DNA from: a virus
Reading direction: 5' to 3' (one strand)
IMG/VR virus record: IMGVR_UViG_3300020474_000993
Length of the DNA: 64,000 nt
The translations under genes were made by a program, and so were the position numbers. A model generated the notes under the pieces. The model had not been told where the DNA came from and searched no databases. It saw nothing but the letters and a program-made list of their open reading frames with translations. Shown one piece after another: positions 2,361 through 63,088 of the stretch (positions within the stretch are counted from its first letter, which is position 1; each line of letters starts with the position of its first letter).

Positions 2361-2442
2361 GTGGTTGAATTTAAAGGGAAAGAAAATGAAAATAATTTCG
2401 TTTTGGCCCTTGACATTTGCTCCCAAATATGGGATCATGATC
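2358..2442 (+). promoter_or_regulatory. Early sigma70-type promoter with upstream IHF-like site and GATC in the -10 box
   Basis: TAAGTGGTTGAAT 2358-2370 (1 mismatch to reversed WATCAANNNNTTR); TTGACA 2410-2415; 17 bp; TG-n-GATCAT 2433-2438, then a second GATC. Confidence 0.8.
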
Positions 2443-2472
2443 AGGTAATTGAGAAAAAGTGAGAGGTAAATT

Positions 2473-3711
2473 ATGAGTGTAAAACAAAAAGAACAGTTCC
2501 TTCAGGCCCTTGCCGATGCGAACAATTCCGCGTCTGCCGTGTTCTCCAAAGCGGAGGCAATGCAGATTGCAAAATCAAGTGGGTTGAAAAATCCCATGTG
2601 GTTTTTTAAAGAGTGTAAAGTTGGTAGAAACCAATTTTCGCCAAACATGGCAACTCTAATGACAGTGGGTAATACTGCTCTCAAACCTGTCGCTGCTGAG
2701 GCGACTGCCCTTGAAGAGTCAGTATCTACCCTAGAACCGATTGAGACAATTCAATCGCAGCCATTAGATTCCAAGATTGTAAAACAGGCAAAACTTGCGG
2801 TGGAAATAGATAACTTAGTTCCAGATTCAGATAGTACTTATGTCCCATTTGGGTTTCATAAAGATTTGGTGAACATCATCAAGTCTGGTATGTTCTATCC
2901 TACATTTATTTGTGGTCTATCTGGTAACGGTAAGACTATGATGGTGGAACAAGTTTGTGCCAAACTCAAGAAAGAAGCTATTAGGGTTAACATCTCTATC
3001 GAAACCGATGAAGATGATTTAATCGGTGGCAATACTCTTGTCGATGGTAATGTTGTTTACAGGGAAGGCCCTGTTCTGACTGCCATGAAGAGGGGTGCGA
3101 TTCTTATCCTAGATGAGATTGATAGGGGTTCTAACAAGTTGATGTGCCTTCAGGCAATCCTTGAAGGGAAACCTTACTTCAATAAAAAGTCTGGTGAGGT
3201 CATCACGCCTGCTACTGGTTTCAATGTGATTGCTACTGCGAACACTAAGGGTCAAGGTTCCGATGACGGTAAGTTCATGGGTGCTCAAGTTCTTGATGAG
3301 GCGTTCCTAGAAAGGTTTGCTATCACGGTTGAACAAGAATATCCATCTAGTGTTCAAGAGAAAAAAATCATTATGAACAAGATGGGTGTCGCTGAGTGTG
3401 TCGATGAAGACTTCGCTGACAAGTTGGTCATGTGGGCTGACATAATCAGAAAGACTTTCTATGAAGGTGGAATCGATGAGTTGGTTTCTACCAGAAGATT
3501 GGAACACATTGTCAAGGCATATGCCATGTTCTCTGATAGACTCAAGGCAATTCAGTTGTGTGTCAATAGGTTTGATACCGACACCAAGACTGCCTTCATT
3601 GACCTTTACACTAAGGTTGATGCTGGTGCCTCTGTTGAAGAGTTGATGGACACTCCTACCGATGGTTCTACTGAAGAAACTTCTGAGGGGAATGACACTT
3701 ATGACTTCTAG
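2473..3711 (+). CDS. cobS: CobS/MoxR-like AAA+ ATPase
   Basis: Walker A GLSGNGKT, Walker B LILDEID, ATANTKG, LDEAFLERF; typical of marine T4-like phages. Confidence 0.9.
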   Translation: MSVKQKEQFLQALADANNSASAVFSKAEAMQIAKSSGLKNPMWFFKECKVGRNQFSPNMATLMTVGNTALKPVAAEATALEESVSTLEPIETIQSQPLDSKIVKQAKLAVEIDNLVPDSDSTYVPFGFHKDLVNIIKSGMFYPTFICGLSGNGKTMMVEQVCAKLKKEAIRVNISIETDEDDLIGGNTLVDGNVVYREGPVLTAMKRGAILILDEIDRGSNKLMCLQAILEGKPYFNKKSGEVITPATGFNVIATANTKGQGSDDGKFMGAQVLDEAFLERFAITVEQEYPSSVQEKKIIMNKMGVAECVDEDFADKLVMWADIIRKTFYEGGIDELVSTRRLEHIVKAYAMFSDRLKAIQLCVNRFDTDTKTAFIDLYTKVDAGASVEELMDTPTDGSTEETSEGNDTYDF

Positions 3712-3979
3712 TCCAGACTATAAGTATAATGAAGGAGCTCTTATCAAAGAGCTCCAATCTTATATTGATAACACTTATGGTGAACATTATTCACAAAACA
3801 GTTTTCAGGCAACCGAGTTTATTATTGATGGTGGCCATGGTGAAGGGTTTTGTATCGGTAATATTTTGAAGTATGCTCAGAGATATGGCAAGAAAGACGG
3901 TTATAACCGCAAAGATTTAATGAAAGTATTGCACTATGCAATCATCGCCCTCCATGTACACGATTTGGAGCACGATTAA
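3701..3979 (+). CDS. DUF3310-like conserved phage protein
   Basis: TYGEHYS...GFCIGNILKYAQRYGKK...DLMKVLHY pattern; ATG at 3701. Confidence 0.7.
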   Translation: MTSSPDYKYNEGALIKELQSYIDNTYGEHYSQNSFQATEFIIDGGHGEGFCIGNILKYAQRYGKKDGYNRKDLMKVLHYAIIALHVHDLEHD

Positions 3980-3985
3980 CCAGTT

Positions 3986-4057
3986 TGCCCCCAGCGGGCA
4001 GTCGGGGCTTGATACGCCTCTCTCTTACTCTCTCACAAGAAGTATCAAGTTCCCGAC
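3986..4057 (+). ncRNA. Intergenic double hairpin with a 26-nt CU-rich loop (candidate regulatory RNA)
   Basis: TGCCC/GGGCA hairpin; GTCGGGGCTTGATAC (4001-4015) pairs with GTATCAAGTTCCCGAC (4042-4057); loop GCCTCTCTCTTACTCTCTCACAAGAA. Confidence 0.55.
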
Positions 4058-4065
4058 AACTTTAT

Positions 4066-4073
4066 TATAAATA
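4066..4073 (+). promoter_or_regulatory. T4-type late promoter
   Basis: TATAAATA upstream of the 4106 ORF. Confidence 0.75.
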
Positions 4074-4105
4074 AGAGAGTAAGAAATAAATTAGAGGAAT
4101 GAACA

Positions 4106-4465
4106 ATGGCATATAGATTAACTTACACTAGTACTCGACCAGACACATCGGCAGATTGGTATTTCTTTTATGAAACCGCTGATGCTGGATTTGAGACTAA
4201 TGCGACACATTTTAGAAACTGGCTTGACGCGAGAAGTGATGTAACTGTTACTTTGACTGTGGCAGAAGATAATCTTTCTTTTAAATGGGAATTAGATTTT
4301 GCTGATGAAGCAGCTTACGATGCATTTGTAGTTGATAGGACTGCCCTGTTTGCAGCTGCTCCTTACAATGGCACTGCCCATTTACAGGAAACAGCTTACT
4401 TGGATTACTTATCTGCTAACAGTATGACTGGCGCTGAGACTCCAGCAGGCGGAGCAGAAGTCTAA
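4106..4465 (+). CDS. Hypothetical late protein
   Basis: 119-aa ORF with AGAGGA RBS behind a late promoter. Confidence 0.7.
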   Translation: MAYRLTYTSTRPDTSADWYFFYETADAGFETNATHFRNWLDARSDVTVTLTVAEDNLSFKWELDFADEAAYDAFVVDRTALFAAAPYNGTAHLQETAYLDYLSANSMTGAETPAGGAEV

Positions 4466-4479
4466 AGTAAAATAAGGGG

Positions 4480-4509
4480 TTGACATTTGCCCCTAACAAA
4501 TGTTATTAT
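4480..4509 (+). promoter_or_regulatory. Sigma70-type promoter for gp45
   Basis: TTGACA 4480-4485, 18 bp, TATTAT 4504-4509. Confidence 0.6.
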
Positions 4510-19498: not shown

Positions 19499-19567
19499 CT
19501 AGGGATTTATTTTCACTTTTTTTCGCTTTGGCCCTTGACATTTGGGGTAAAATATGAGATCATGATC
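19483..19567 (+). promoter_or_regulatory. Early promoter with IHF site and GATC in the -10 box
   Basis: TAAGTTGTTGATT 19483-19495 (perfect reversed IHF consensus); TTGACA 19535-19540; 17 bp; TG-n-GATCAT-GATC. Confidence 0.85.
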
Positions 19568-19594
19568 ATATAAATTAGAGAAGTGAGAGAAAAT

Positions 19595-19945
19595 ATGCAA
19601 AAAGAAATCGAAAACCTAAAAGAATTGATAGTGAATGACTATCAAAACTGGACATCTAGGTCTGCTTATTCAGACGAAGAGAGGGACAAAGAAAGGGTCG
19701 CTGAATTCGCCTCTAAAATAGAGGTATCAGAAGGTCAGAAATACATCAAAATAATTTCTGACAGGTCTGTTTGGGGTTTCATCGTCAAGACTGAAACCGA
19801 TAAATTATTCCAAAAGGGTGACATTTTGAAACCCGCTGGTTGGGCTGCCCCCGCTAGGAACAAACCTAGAGGCAATGTCTTTGAGATGTTGGGTGGTAAA
19901 GGAACTGGTTGGGTAAGATGGACTGGCCCACAGTACTTACGGTAG
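19595..19945 (+). CDS. Conserved early hypothetical phage protein
   Basis: GQKYIKI...VWGFI...GDILKPAGWAAPARN..RGN...WTGPQYL. Confidence 0.7.
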   Translation: MQKEIENLKELIVNDYQNWTSRSAYSDEERDKERVAEFASKIEVSEGQKYIKIISDRSVWGFIVKTETDKLFQKGDILKPAGWAAPARNKPRGNVFEMLGGKGTGWVRWTGPQYLR

Positions 19946-23084: not shown

Positions 23085-23117
23085 TATAAATATAGGGGAC
23101 AATAAGTCCCCTTTTTT
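23085..23117 (+). promoter_or_regulatory. Late promoter immediately followed by a terminator-like hairpin
   Basis: TATAAATA 23085-23092; AGGGGAC/GTCCCCT plus T-run. Confidence 0.65.
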
Positions 23118-23134
23118 AATTATGAGGTAATATT

Positions 23135-23581
23135 ATGGAAAAGAAAGAAATAAAGAAAGTATTGGATGGTGCAGAATTCGTGATGAAGGACATGCCTGAA
23201 GAGTTAAAAGAAGTTTTGAAAACACAAATTGTGAATCCAAAACTAATGGATGAATTTGATAACTTATACGATGAAGATATCGATGCTGAAACAGTCAAAG
23301 CATTATCCCACGCATTAGAATTAGACTACATTGAAAAATGGAAAGTCTTTGCTCAAATGAAACTCCTAGAAAAGAATTTTGCTATTGCTGAACAGGCAAG
23401 GGTTGCTTTGCGTGAACAATTAACAACTGCTAATGCCAATGTTCAAGTTCTTTTGAGGAACTATGAAGAGAAAAAAATTGGATTAGACCACGAAATAAAA
23501 GAGAAACTAAAAGTAAAAGAAGAACTTAAATTAGTTCGTGCTGAATTGAAGAACCTTAAAAAGAAGACGCCTGAATTATAA
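23135..23581 (+). CDS. Hypothetical coiled-coil protein
   Basis: GAGG RBS; heptad-rich C-terminus. Confidence 0.65.
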   Translation: MEKKEIKKVLDGAEFVMKDMPEELKEVLKTQIVNPKLMDEFDNLYDEDIDAETVKALSHALELDYIEKWKVFAQMKLLEKNFAIAEQARVALREQLTTANANVQVLLRNYEEKKIGLDHEIKEKLKVKEELKLVRAELKNLKKKTPEL

Positions 23582-51980: not shown

Positions 51981-52497
51981 ATTCTTTTTATTTAAATGTG
52001 GCGGATGGAAGAATGAGTTTTGGATAGTAGATGAAAAGAGTCTACAGGAAGTACCAAAACCACGCGAGATGATAATTAAGTTCTCTAATATAGAACAGAT
52101 TAGAGAATACGCAATCACCCAAAACCCACAAGACTTACCAATAGTCGATAGGTGCAGAGACCGTACCGCTTGGCACACGCCAGAGGGTCGAGAACGCATA
52201 AAACAGGCTAAACTGGGTCAAAGTAACCCCAATTCTAGGGGACTGTCAGAAGCGCATAGGGCGAAGATATCACAAACGATGACAGGTACGCGGAGGGGTG
52301 AATTCAATCCCATGTATGGGAGACAACACAAAGCACATACCATAGAACTAATACGACAGAAGGCATATGCTCGCCCCAAGATGAGATGGGCAGTAGAACC
52401 TACTGGAAAATCCCATTTGATACGCGCTGACGGTGAAATACCCCAAGAATGGCAATGGGGACGATATTACGACAAATACAGACCAAATGAGGAGTAA
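51964..52497 (+). CDS. NUMOD3 DNA-binding-motif protein without a recognisable nuclease domain
   Basis: HTPEGRERIKQA, LSEAHRAKISQ, GEFNPMYGRQHKAHT, W.WGR. Confidence 0.7.
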   Translation: MERATRFFLFKCGGWKNEFWIVDEKSLQEVPKPREMIIKFSNIEQIREYAITQNPQDLPIVDRCRDRTAWHTPEGRERIKQAKLGQSNPNSRGLSEAHRAKISQTMTGTRRGEFNPMYGRQHKAHTIELIRQKAYARPKMRWAVEPTGKSHLIRADGEIPQEWQWGRYYDKYRPNEE

Positions 52498-52529
52498 AAA
52501 AAGTTGAATTATTTTGCTTTTTCCTTGTA

Positions 52530-52598
52530 TATCAATGACTTACAAAGGCGCTTTTATCGCCGAAACGCTTGACTTTTGCTCCCATATCTGTCATGATC
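52530..52598 (+). promoter_or_regulatory. Early promoter with IHF site and GATC overlapping the -10 box
   Basis: TATCAATGACTTA 52530-52542 (perfect IHF consensus); TTGACT 52569-52574; 17 bp; TG-t-CATGAT-C. Confidence 0.8.
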
Positions 52599-52631
52599 AC
52601 TATGTAATTAATTAAAAGTGAGAGAAAAAAT

Positions 52632-52862
52632 ATGATAGATTTTGTTGGTGCGAAGAATGGTGGTTTAGAGTTTACAACGATTTGTGACACTAAGATTTTT
52701 GGTGGTACACTTGAAGAGTGTGCTTTGATTATTGCGAAACAAGGACTCGCCGACAGGGTGATGGGTTCTTCTTCTATGGACTTTGCTGATGAGTATGGTT
52801 TTAAGACTCAAGAAGGTGCCATGGAAATGTATCAATACGCAATTAAGTTAAGTGGAGTATAA
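52632..52862 (+). CDS. Early hypothetical protein
   Basis: GTGAGAG leader; SSSMDFADEYGF motif. Confidence 0.65.
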   Translation: MIDFVGAKNGGLEFTTICDTKIFGGTLEECALIIAKQGLADRVMGSSSMDFADEYGFKTQEGAMEMYQYAIKLSGV

Positions 52863-56554: not shown

Positions 56555-56626
56555 TAAGTCATTGATATATAAGGGAATAATAAAGTAAAATAATCCTTGA
56601 CATCTGGTTCGTACTGTGTCATGATC
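56555..56626 (+). promoter_or_regulatory. Early promoter with IHF site and GATC overlapping the -10 box, driving the large ncRNA
   Basis: TAAGTCATTGATA 56555-56567; TTGACA 56597-56602; 17 bp; TG-t-CATGAT-C. Confidence 0.8.
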
Positions 56627-56631
56627 ACTAA

Positions 56632-57030
56632 GTAATTGAGATGAGGAGAGACCATTGAGTTGACAATAGATTAAACCCCAGTTAAACCGCACCATCTCAC
56701 CGTGATTGAGGTTCAGAAAGAGTGCTATCGGGGTCGGATATGAATCACGGGGCCAATGTGAAAGGTGGCATGACCACGCTCCGCATTGACCAAGGCAGGG
56801 GGGACGCAGCCCCATCAAAAGGCGGAGAGACAACTAAAAGGAGAGTCCAGTAGCGAAATTGCAAGCCGGCAAAGATGCGTGAATGGACAGGGCAGTTCGC
56901 TGCTAACGGTGTGGTGACCTAATACACCCGCCGCTCCCCCACGGTTAGGGGAGCACCACCCAGCTCGAAGCGGCCTATGCTTTGGGATCGAGGTGGTCGC
57001 CCTTACAAGGGCATCTGGCATCCCCCCTAG
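56632..57030 (+). ncRNA. Large (~400 nt) highly structured non-coding RNA of unrecognised class
   Basis: GC-rich island without a credible ORF; at least 10 helices incl. CCGTGATT/AATCACGG, CAATGTG/CGCATTG, AGTAGCGAA/TTCGCTGCT, GCTCCCC/GGGGAGC, ACCACC/GGTGGT, GCCCTT/AAGGGC and long-range AGGGGGGA/TCCCCCCT. Confidence 0.7.
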
Positions 57031-58658: not shown

Positions 58659-59684
58659 GTGGATTATCAGATTGATGGTATAGACGGGCTTGGCGTTAAG
58701 GGGGAACTATGGGGTATAATTGTTTCGGGGAAGTTTAAAGAACATGATTTATTAGTCTATAACGCATACGAAGCAGAACTGGGCCCAGAAACCGATTACT
58801 ATGAGATGGGTAAGTATGTCAAAAGTTATACAGAGATTACTGGCGCATCCAATCTAAATCGTTTCATACCTAGACTAGATAATGTACATATAATTTCATG
58901 GCCATATCACTGGTTAAATGATACAATATGTCGATACGGTTCAAAGGGTGACCAGATTGACCTTAATTATTTCAAAGAGATTAACGCATATCCACCACCA
59001 AAACATCTATTTACCAGTATGATACGACAACCAAAACCCCATCGTGAAATGCTTTGGGATTTATTAAAGAGTCGGGACATGGTAAACGAGTTTTGTAGTT
59101 ACGCACCAGAGGGTGTACACATTGATTTGAAAGAACAAAAATCTGAGGGTCAGATTTTCTTTCACAATGATGACGAGGATATACAGGCAAGAACGCATAT
59201 GCCTCCGACTTGGTATAAAGATGTATTATTCGATGTTATCTGTGAAACACATCATGAAGATAATATGATGTTCTTCACCGAAAAGACTTGGAAGGCATTT
59301 CTTGGTATGAAGTATCCGCTTATTCTAGGTGCGAAAGGTATACATGCACATTTGGAAAAGTTGGGATTTAGATTTCCGTGGAATCTACCATATCGATTCG
59401 ATGGAGAACCTCACATATACAATAGGGCAAAACAACTAGTGCTTACTCTGGAGTATGTACAGGAGGCAACGGTGAAAAGGGTATCGCAATTTGGAAAAGA
59501 GGCCACCGTTGGGGATTTATATAAGGAATGGTATAATGACTTACTATGGAATCAGCGATTAGCACTCAATTTATGTGCTGAGAACCCCCCAGATTGCTTC
59601 GGATCAGTCCCATGTCCGCCAGAATGGTATCGACATTGGTTATTTTCGAGTTCAATAGCGACAAATACAACAGCAAATTTATAA
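58659..59684 (+). CDS. Hypothetical glycosyltransferase-like protein
   Basis: R.PKPHR; FDVICET...FFTEKTWK...P.ILG...LEKLGF pattern. Confidence 0.45.
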   Translation: MDYQIDGIDGLGVKGELWGIIVSGKFKEHDLLVYNAYEAELGPETDYYEMGKYVKSYTEITGASNLNRFIPRLDNVHIISWPYHWLNDTICRYGSKGDQIDLNYFKEINAYPPPKHLFTSMIRQPKPHREMLWDLLKSRDMVNEFCSYAPEGVHIDLKEQKSEGQIFFHNDDEDIQARTHMPPTWYKDVLFDVICETHHEDNMMFFTEKTWKAFLGMKYPLILGAKGIHAHLEKLGFRFPWNLPYRFDGEPHIYNRAKQLVLTLEYVQEATVKRVSQFGKEATVGDLYKEWYNDLLWNQRLALNLCAENPPDCFGSVPCPPEWYRHWLFSSSIATNTTANL

Positions 59685-59715
59685 AAAAATTCAATTATTT
59701 TGCTTTATCTAGGAA

Positions 59716-59777
59716 TATCAATGGCTTACAGAGGCAGCTTTTTCTTGACATTTGCTTCAAATTATGGGATCATGATC
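59716..59777 (+). promoter_or_regulatory. Early promoter with IHF site and GATC in the -10 box
   Basis: TATCAATGGCTTA 59716-59728; TTGACA 59745-59750; 17 bp; TG-g-GATCAT-GATC. Confidence 0.85.
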
Positions 59778-59806
59778 CTGTAATCAATTGAGAGAGGTCT
59801 AAAACC

Positions 59807-60169
59807 ATGGCGTATGTATCCCAAGAAAAGAAAAAAGAACTTGCGGTTGGAATCAAATCGGTACTGAAAAAGTACGGTATGAAAGGTTCTATCGCGGTTA
59901 ACAATCATTCCACATTAGTGGTCAATCTGAAGTCTGGCCCCATCAACTTCAAGGCGCAAAACGAACATTATCAAGTTAATCCTTACCATGTCGAGTCACA
60001 ATGGACTGGCGTTGCTAAGGAGTTTCTGCTTGAGTTGTTGGAAGCGATGAAGGGTGAAGGTACTGGATGGTTCGATAAGTCGGACATCATGACTGACTAC
60101 TTCCACACTGCTTGGTACAATGATATCAACATTGGAAAGTGGAACAAAACCTACGAACTAACTGTTTAA
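59807..60169 (+). CDS. Conserved early phage protein
   Basis: MAYVSQEKKKEL...KYGMKGSI...WFDKSDIMTDYFHTAWY.DINIGKW. Confidence 0.75.
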   Translation: MAYVSQEKKKELAVGIKSVLKKYGMKGSIAVNNHSTLVVNLKSGPINFKAQNEHYQVNPYHVESQWTGVAKEFLLELLEAMKGEGTGWFDKSDIMTDYFHTAWYNDINIGKWNKTYELTV

Positions 60170-60187
60170 CTTTGAGAGAGTAATATT

Positions 60188-63002: not shown

Positions 63003-63024
63003 TTAACACCTCCTGTATTAAGAG

Positions 63025-63088
63025 ATGCGTTCCTTCGGCGGAATTGCCTACTTCCGTCCACCGCTACATTTAGGGTGGATGAACGAAT
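63025..63088 (-). ncRNA. Glutamine riboswitch (glnA motif)
   Basis: - strand ATTCGTTCATCCACC...GGTGGACGGAAGTAGGC...GCCGAAGGAACGCAT matches the CGUUCA..GACGGAAGUAGG..CCGAAGGAACG core. Confidence 0.85.

Follow-up and report, generated by a model that had tools for sequence, protein, structure and literature searches.

In bacteriophage T4, the leaders of e, soc, 49 and I-TevI carry the late promoter TATAAATA between an upstream RNA segment and a downstream leader able to pair with it, and the structure is possible on early read-through RNA only (PMC3014915). The locus described here shares both properties. It lies at the 3' end of an early operon headed by cobS, in a 64,000-nt window (the whole stretch of DNA analysed) from an uncultured marine T4-like myovirus with 38% G+C. 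In T4 a simple local helix buries the Shine-Dalgarno (SD) sequence or the AUG. In contrast, the phage element would pair through the loop of a separate stable hairpin, giving a pseudoknot, its complement lies mainly upstream of the SD, and four of its clades have no such complement.

T4 also inactivates early mRNAs by means of a protein, the endoribonuclease RegB, which acts through GGAG SDs (PMC3014915). The logic at our locus would be the same in so far as a class-specific flavour of early SD (GGAG in T4, GAGAG here) allows selective inactivation; the agent in T4 is a protein nuclease, whereas the candidate agent here is an RNA. A RegB search of G001, a complete 165-kb relative with terminal repeats, gave no match, which is a weak negative, the control genomes being silent too. 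A review of T4 notes that no regulatory small RNA has been characterised in this phage and asks whether T4-related genomes will supply candidates (PMC3014915). The element analysed here is a concrete and conserved candidate regulatory RNA, present once in the window and once in G001, with a defined seed, predicted targets (the cobS leader and a few early first genes) and a well-marked place in the temporal programme.

Outside T4-type phages, the icaR mRNA of Staphylococcus aureus carries in its 3'-UTR a pyrimidine-rich anti-SD motif that complements the SD of its own first gene (PMC3868564). The cobS operon likewise has a 3'-UTR motif complementary to the SD of its own first gene. It is a non-homologous phage operon, in which the terminal hairpin carries the motif in its loop, other operons have matching leaders as well, and the interaction is a predicted one. 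SD-blocking RNAs with C/U-rich loops are also known from S. aureus, namely hairpins 7, 13 and 14 of RNAIII and RsaE, and in enterobacteria 3'-UTR-derived sRNAs arise from mRNA ends. The phage element resembles these RNAs in showing a conserved pyrimidine seed in a hairpin loop (terminator loops included) and in facing the purine-rich ribosome-binding sites of several mRNAs; it differs in having no sequence or Rfam relationship with them, in a seed that is (CU)n and not UCCC, and in being a predicted RNA. In the c4 antisense RNA of phages P1 and P7, which is released by RNase P, hairpin loops complement the ribosome-binding region further down the same transcript, in a different type of phage and a different structure with no homology to ours.

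The hairpin element and its conservation

A first-pass annotation of the window had described a stem of about 15 bp displaying a CU-rich loop at the 3' end of the cobS operon, and all its coordinates proved right (Table 1). When the element is folded alone both hairpins form (-30.2 kcal/mol) and the loop has an unpaired probability of 0.86. A comparison with the covariance models of Rfam 15 returned chance-level scores only (20 and 15 bits against gathering scores of 60 and 38). G-U pairs in the stem would be C-A mismatches on the other strand, so the RNA is read from the + strand, and from sequence comparison we conclude that the interval encodes a structured RNA on that strand. An open reading frame (3936-4070) also runs across the element; a coding reading was ruled out, because the stems covary as pairs and the differences in loop length are not multiples of three.

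Table 1. Features of the hairpin locus and of the early leaders complementary to its loop; positions refer to the 64,000-nt window.
Feature	Position	Strand	Description
cobS early promoter, sigma70-like	2410-2438	+	TTGACA, 17 nt, GATCAT; GATC class; one of five copies of repeat family D1
cobS GA-type leader	2459-2466	+	GUGAGAGG; complement of the 3' half of the loop, exact match 2459-2465
Early operon body	2473-3979	+	cobS 2473-3711; DUF3310 gene 3701-3979 (last gene)
Small 5' hairpin	3986-4000	+	5 bp, 5-nt loop; directly 3' of the stop codon
Main hairpin	4001-4057	+	4001-4015 pairs with 4042-4057; 15 pairs, one G-U, U4050 bulged
CU-rich loop	4016-4041	+	26 nt, top of the main hairpin
U-rich tail	4058-4065	+	Weak in the window: two A first, then CUUUAUUAU
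T4-type late promoter	4066-4073	+	TATAAATA; invariant across the window clade
GA box	4074-4084	+	11-nt perfect complement of loop 4023-4033; straddles the expected late start site
119-aa late gene	SD 4094-4098; ORF 4106-4465	+	SD AGAGG; precedes gp45
Sigma70-like promoter upstream of the gp45 clamp gene	4480-4509		TTGACA, 18 nt, TATTAT, with TG; near-consensus
GA-type leader of early gene 19595	19583-19590	+	Exact loop complement
GA-type leader of early gene 52632	52618-52625	+	Exact loop complement
GA-type leader of early gene 59807	59789-59797	+	Exact loop complement at 59790-59797
11-nt loop complement	60173-60183	+	Before the second gene (60188) of the 59807 operon

Nearly all genes of the window lie on the + strand. 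The window DNA polymerase shares only 47% identity with cyanomyovirus polymerases. Neither the DNA of the region nor the 119-aa protein found a match among cultured phages, so the element is absent from laboratory phages. The cobS operon and the gp45 gene each have a sigma70-like promoter of their own, so that the 119-aa gene forms an island under a late promoter, flanked by two early units. Its product matched no Pfam or PHROG family, and its structural model (pLDDT 62.5, low confidence) gave only weak matches to ferredoxin-like and dimeric alpha-beta-barrel folds. Two giant metagenomic proteins carry this domain as repeats, P0018 (3694 aa) with 11 copies and P0022 (2721 aa) with 19.

Relatives in the clade of the window were gathered via the downstream protein, a route unbiased with respect to the hairpin, which yielded 15 loci (10 distinct). 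An 18-nt loop core is invariant in all ten distinct relatives, the GA box is invariant at 10 of its 11 positions, and three stem pairs show compensatory changes with A-U, G-U and G-C intermediates. A larger set from the same clade had partly been collected by matching the loop core and was therefore used for the flanks only; it varies at 84% of third codon positions and at 8 of 9 spacer positions. Conservation is higher in the intergenic element than in the genes on either side, and not all loci even have the same upstream gene. Conservation of the loop, which the first-pass annotation had named as a check on its proposal, is thus confirmed, the core being invariant while stems, spacers and third codon positions vary.

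More distant members were sought by a profile search with the 119-aa protein followed by retrieval of contigs, by a covariance-model search, and by a loose pattern scan of viral contigs, which returned mostly chance matches and from which only those with a flanking stem were kept. The resulting family comprises at least 10 clades of uncultured marine T4-like phages with a shared layout: a small hairpin, a stem of 12-20 bp, a CU-rich loop of 20-26 nt, a U-rich tail and the late promoter TATAAATA, which follows the hairpin in all members listed except L095, where it is degenerate (TATAAAAA). The stem sequences are unrelated between clades; the loops are similar, with CUCUC-type repeats that often end in CUCUCA. 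The small hairpin differs in sequence by clade and is missing only in L029. L029 is also the one clade in which a gene other than the 119-aa type comes next downstream. In the loci L117 and L123 a ketoacyl-synthase gene ends the cobS operon, between the DUF3310 gene and the hairpin.

In a model-fitted alignment of 16 sequences, both sides change in 14 of the 15 main-stem pairs and at all five pairs of the small hairpin, and 97% of cells are paired compared with 31-45% in slid-partner controls; the fit to the model inflates these pairing figures somewhat, and the raw sequences still show perfect stems. Judged by this covariation, the RNA structure is far beyond chance.

As to termination, every clade has a G+C-rich stem behind the final gene of the cobS operon, and clean U runs follow it in L125, L126, L121, L095 and L017. 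The loop is 20-26 nt in all clades, not the about 3-8 nt of an intrinsic terminator, and a terminator scan did not flag the element. Elsewhere in the window (23085-23135) a late promoter is followed, within the 5' leader, by a terminator-like perfect G+C hairpin with a short loop and a T run.

Loop complements at early gene starts

The first-pass annotation had further proposed that segments of the loop are antisense to the ribosome-binding leaders of early genes. All six complements that it gave, in the four leaders of early first genes, before gene 60188 and in the GA box, were recovered exactly (Table 1). Most genes of the phage carry ordinary SDs (GGAG, GAGG, AGGA), and distinct UGAGAGAGG or GUGAGAG leaders stand before the first genes behind TTGAC promoters. 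Such a promoter precedes 4 of 8 genes with a GAGAG leader in the window, as against 15 of 82 others (odds ratio 4.5, p=0.06), and 9 of 17 in G001, as against 24 of 196 others (odds ratio 8, p=2e-4). The proposal would have failed if GAGAG leaders were equally common on non-early genes; they are enriched behind early promoters in both genomes.

When the 91 start regions of the window are ranked by duplex energy with the loop, the four early first genes take ranks 3 (cobS), 5 (the 19595 gene), 6 and 19, and the 60188 gene takes rank 2. None of 300 shuffled loops reached the mean energy of the early genes, and two of 300 reached their mean rank. In G001, which has a different loop, cobS ranks third and the ortholog of the 19595 gene second among 213 start regions, and the three longest exact complements (12, 12 and 11 nt), one of them the cobS leader, are each placed 13-16 nt ahead of a start codon. 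Among 55 reciprocal-best ortholog pairs of the two genomes, cobS and the 19595 gene come out jointly on top and the 59807 gene sixth. The suggestion that early genes should rank at the top was borne out in that they stand near it in both genomes and the orthologous targets agree. The loop thus presents a conserved seed that is predicted to be single-stranded, with complements at the ribosome-binding sites of orthologous targets. The earlier caveat that the matches are short and of low complexity holds for their total number, since 72 loop matches of at least 7 nt in 64 kb are roughly what is expected for 20 seven-mers; it does not hold for their placement at early start regions, which is non-random.

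The cobS leader is of the GAGAG type in nine of the ten hairpin-bearing variants listed, the tenth (L021) reading GAGAAGAGG, and it contains a loop complement of 7-11 nt in every clade for which a cobS leader is available. In L013, L017 and L020 this leader lacks GG and is therefore a poor classical SD. The leader of L013 (about 1345-1391) is a pure (GA)n run, of which 10 nt complement the 5' half of the loop. Among more distant phages, the 14 listed that lack the hairpin have ordinary SDs before cobS, save for a mis-assigned start in L022; the L022 leader reads GAGAGAGG, yet there is no hairpin in its locus.

Several observations limit what can be read from this complementarity. In a swap comparison, start regions in the window and in G001 were matched by loops from other clades just as well as by the genome's own loop, which makes the complementarity a generic one of (CU)n against (GA)n. 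Covariation between loop and leaders, which the earlier annotation had put forward as a check, was not found, and specificity for the own loop is likewise missing. The early leaders are part of a repeated promoter cassette and do not represent independent events. Together with the co-occurrence of hairpin and GA-type leader in one clade, this leaves few independent events, and the co-occurrence itself may be a single evolutionary event. RNAcofold of hairpin and leader was uninformative, because a loop paired to a linear strand counts as a pseudoknot in this program, which opens the stem instead. The original interpretation of a small RNA exerting feedback on early genes is, on these sequence comparisons, partly supported.

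The repeated cassette is 68 nt long and occurs five times in the window (2409-2476, 19534-19601, 52568-52635, 56596-56663 and 59744-59811). Each copy comprises a TTGAC -35 box, a -10 region reading GATCATGATC or TCATGATCA, and a GA-type leader, and the cassette has the look of an early promoter-plus-leader module that is mobile or has been duplicated. Two of the cassette promoters are directly preceded by a 62-nt repeat (52497-52558 and 59683-59744, 79% identity) that could be an upstream regulatory or protein-binding element.

What the element may do

The explanation we tentatively favour, at somewhat less than even confidence, is that the element is a 3'-end hairpin of the terminator type and that its loop pairs with early leaders of the GA type as well as, in the presence of a GA box, with read-through RNA. 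The RNA of the early cobS operon would end in a module of small 5' hairpin, long G+C-rich hairpin and U-rich tail, in which the long hairpin may provide a stop resembling an intrinsic terminator and insulate the operon from the late promoter behind it. Its large loop would display a conserved CU-rich sequence akin to the ribosomal anti-Shine-Dalgarno. A terminated or processed RNA of about 75-80 nt may then persist and pair through its loop with the UGAGAGAGG-type leaders that mark the first genes behind early promoters; if such pairing beats 16S rRNA, early translation would shut down as the RNA accumulates. The cobS leader heads the very transcript that ends in the hairpin, so the partners could sit on different molecules or at the two ends of a single mRNA. 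For cobS, pairing could take place within one mRNA, as in icaR; the other early leaders could be paired in trans. In clades with a GA box, that of the window included, the loop may in addition pair in cis on read-through RNA, so that the late gene would not be expressed from early transcripts. The small 5' hairpin and a conserved CAGUU before it, which we take to resemble the preference of RNase E, would fit a discrete processed RNA. Two points count against this explanation: the RNA of one operon must act on many abundant early mRNAs, and a loop of 20-26 nt is atypical of an efficient intrinsic terminator, with a U tract that is weak in the window.

The strongest competitor, unlikely in our judgement, takes the element for a terminator and insulator whose loop has been kept for a protein or for transcription and not for RNA-RNA pairing. 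Candidate partners of the loop would be ribosomal protein S1, the YC-dinucleotide-binding surface of Rho or an RNA-binding protein of the phage, and the GA-type leaders would be an unrelated SD flavour of early genes. In favour of this idea are the location, with an early operon on one side, a late gene on the other and a separate promoter for gp45, the U runs that most clades have behind a G+C-rich stem, and the lack of covariation between seed and targets. G001 also encodes RegA, so protein-based translational control exists in the lineage. Any protein partner is hypothetical, however, and the phage has canonical short-loop terminators elsewhere (near 23100), which means that a large conserved loop is not needed for termination. 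The idea also leaves unexplained why the best genome-wide complements fall on early ribosome-binding sites.

Rather unlikelier still is a silencer of the T4 lysozyme type that acts in cis only. Here the loop would pair with the GA box and the SD of the late gene on early read-through RNA, transcripts from the late promoter would lack the hairpin and be translated, and the matches to early leaders would be a by-product of an anti-SD-like loop. The late promoter of the window indeed lies between loop and box, in a layout like that of T4 e, soc, 49 and I-TevI (PMC3014915). Duplex folding finds the 11-bp complement of loop and box plus CCUCU:AGAGG, and the loop/box helix is part of the minimum-free-energy fold of 3975-4110. 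Within the window clade the box does not vary, and none of the nine other late promoters of the window has one. In six clades (that of the window, L013, L020, L017, L018 and L121) the 16 nt after TATAAATA fall in the top 0-2% of 47 control late leaders for complementarity to the loop, and they do so in different registers, which suggests selection for complementarity itself. Against this, L123/G001, L117, L126 and L029 keep the hairpin and the CU loop with no loop complement above background after the late promoter, and the late-gene start region of G001 ranks only 102nd of 213 for loop pairing. The pseudoknot in cis that the first reading had offered as an alternative therefore stands in the clade of the window and falls in four others, the complete genome of G001 among them, and purely cis silencing cannot be the family-wide function. 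Conserved sequestration of the SD or AUG, as in the T4 leaders, is not seen: in the window 11 bp of the cis pairing lie upstream of the SD and only 5 bp on it, the box itself being 10 nt upstream. Nor would a purely cis role account for the small hairpin on the 5' side or for early leaders of the GA type.

A functionless loop and a role at the DNA level are together improbable. Low-complexity coincidence, that is, a plain hairpin with a functionless loop sequence, could account for matches that are short and repetitive, at chance as a total of 7-mers and equally good with loops of other clades; it is disfavoured and most improbable in view of the invariant loop core amid varying stems, spacers and third codon positions and of the retention of CU-rich loops on unrelated stems in at least 10 clades. 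The inverted repeat adjoining a promoter might also suggest a cruciform, a protein site or an antisense RNA from the minus strand, which we consider the least credible of all, since the G-U pairs of the stem become C-A mismatches on the other strand or in a cruciform and nearly all genes lie on the + strand.

To return to the hairpin whose loop pairs with early leaders, a conserved hairpin with a loop matching GAGAG leaders may be an RNA brake on early gene expression. A further step, which we regard as doubtful, is that such an RNA has replaced a protein-based, RegB-like early shut-off, as an anti-Shine-Dalgarno mimic that recognises class-specific GAGAG leaders on early mRNAs, its own among them, and times the switch from early to late expression. 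If true, abundant ocean phages would switch off their early genes without RegB, by a simple and portable anti-SD RNA module, and T4-type phages would have their first example of a small regulatory RNA that acts globally. If the element is only a terminator and cis silencer, it would extend the logic of T4 lysozyme to a pseudoknot form.

Two further RNA structures were seen in passing. On the minus strand of another viral contig, L214 (3786-3900), the arrangement is a different one: an 11-bp hairpin with a CU-containing loop is followed by a second, canonical terminator and then by TATAAATA. The sole Rfam match of the window is a glutamine riboswitch aptamer (RF01739) at 63024-63087 on the minus strand, which scores 60 bits against a gathering score of 35.
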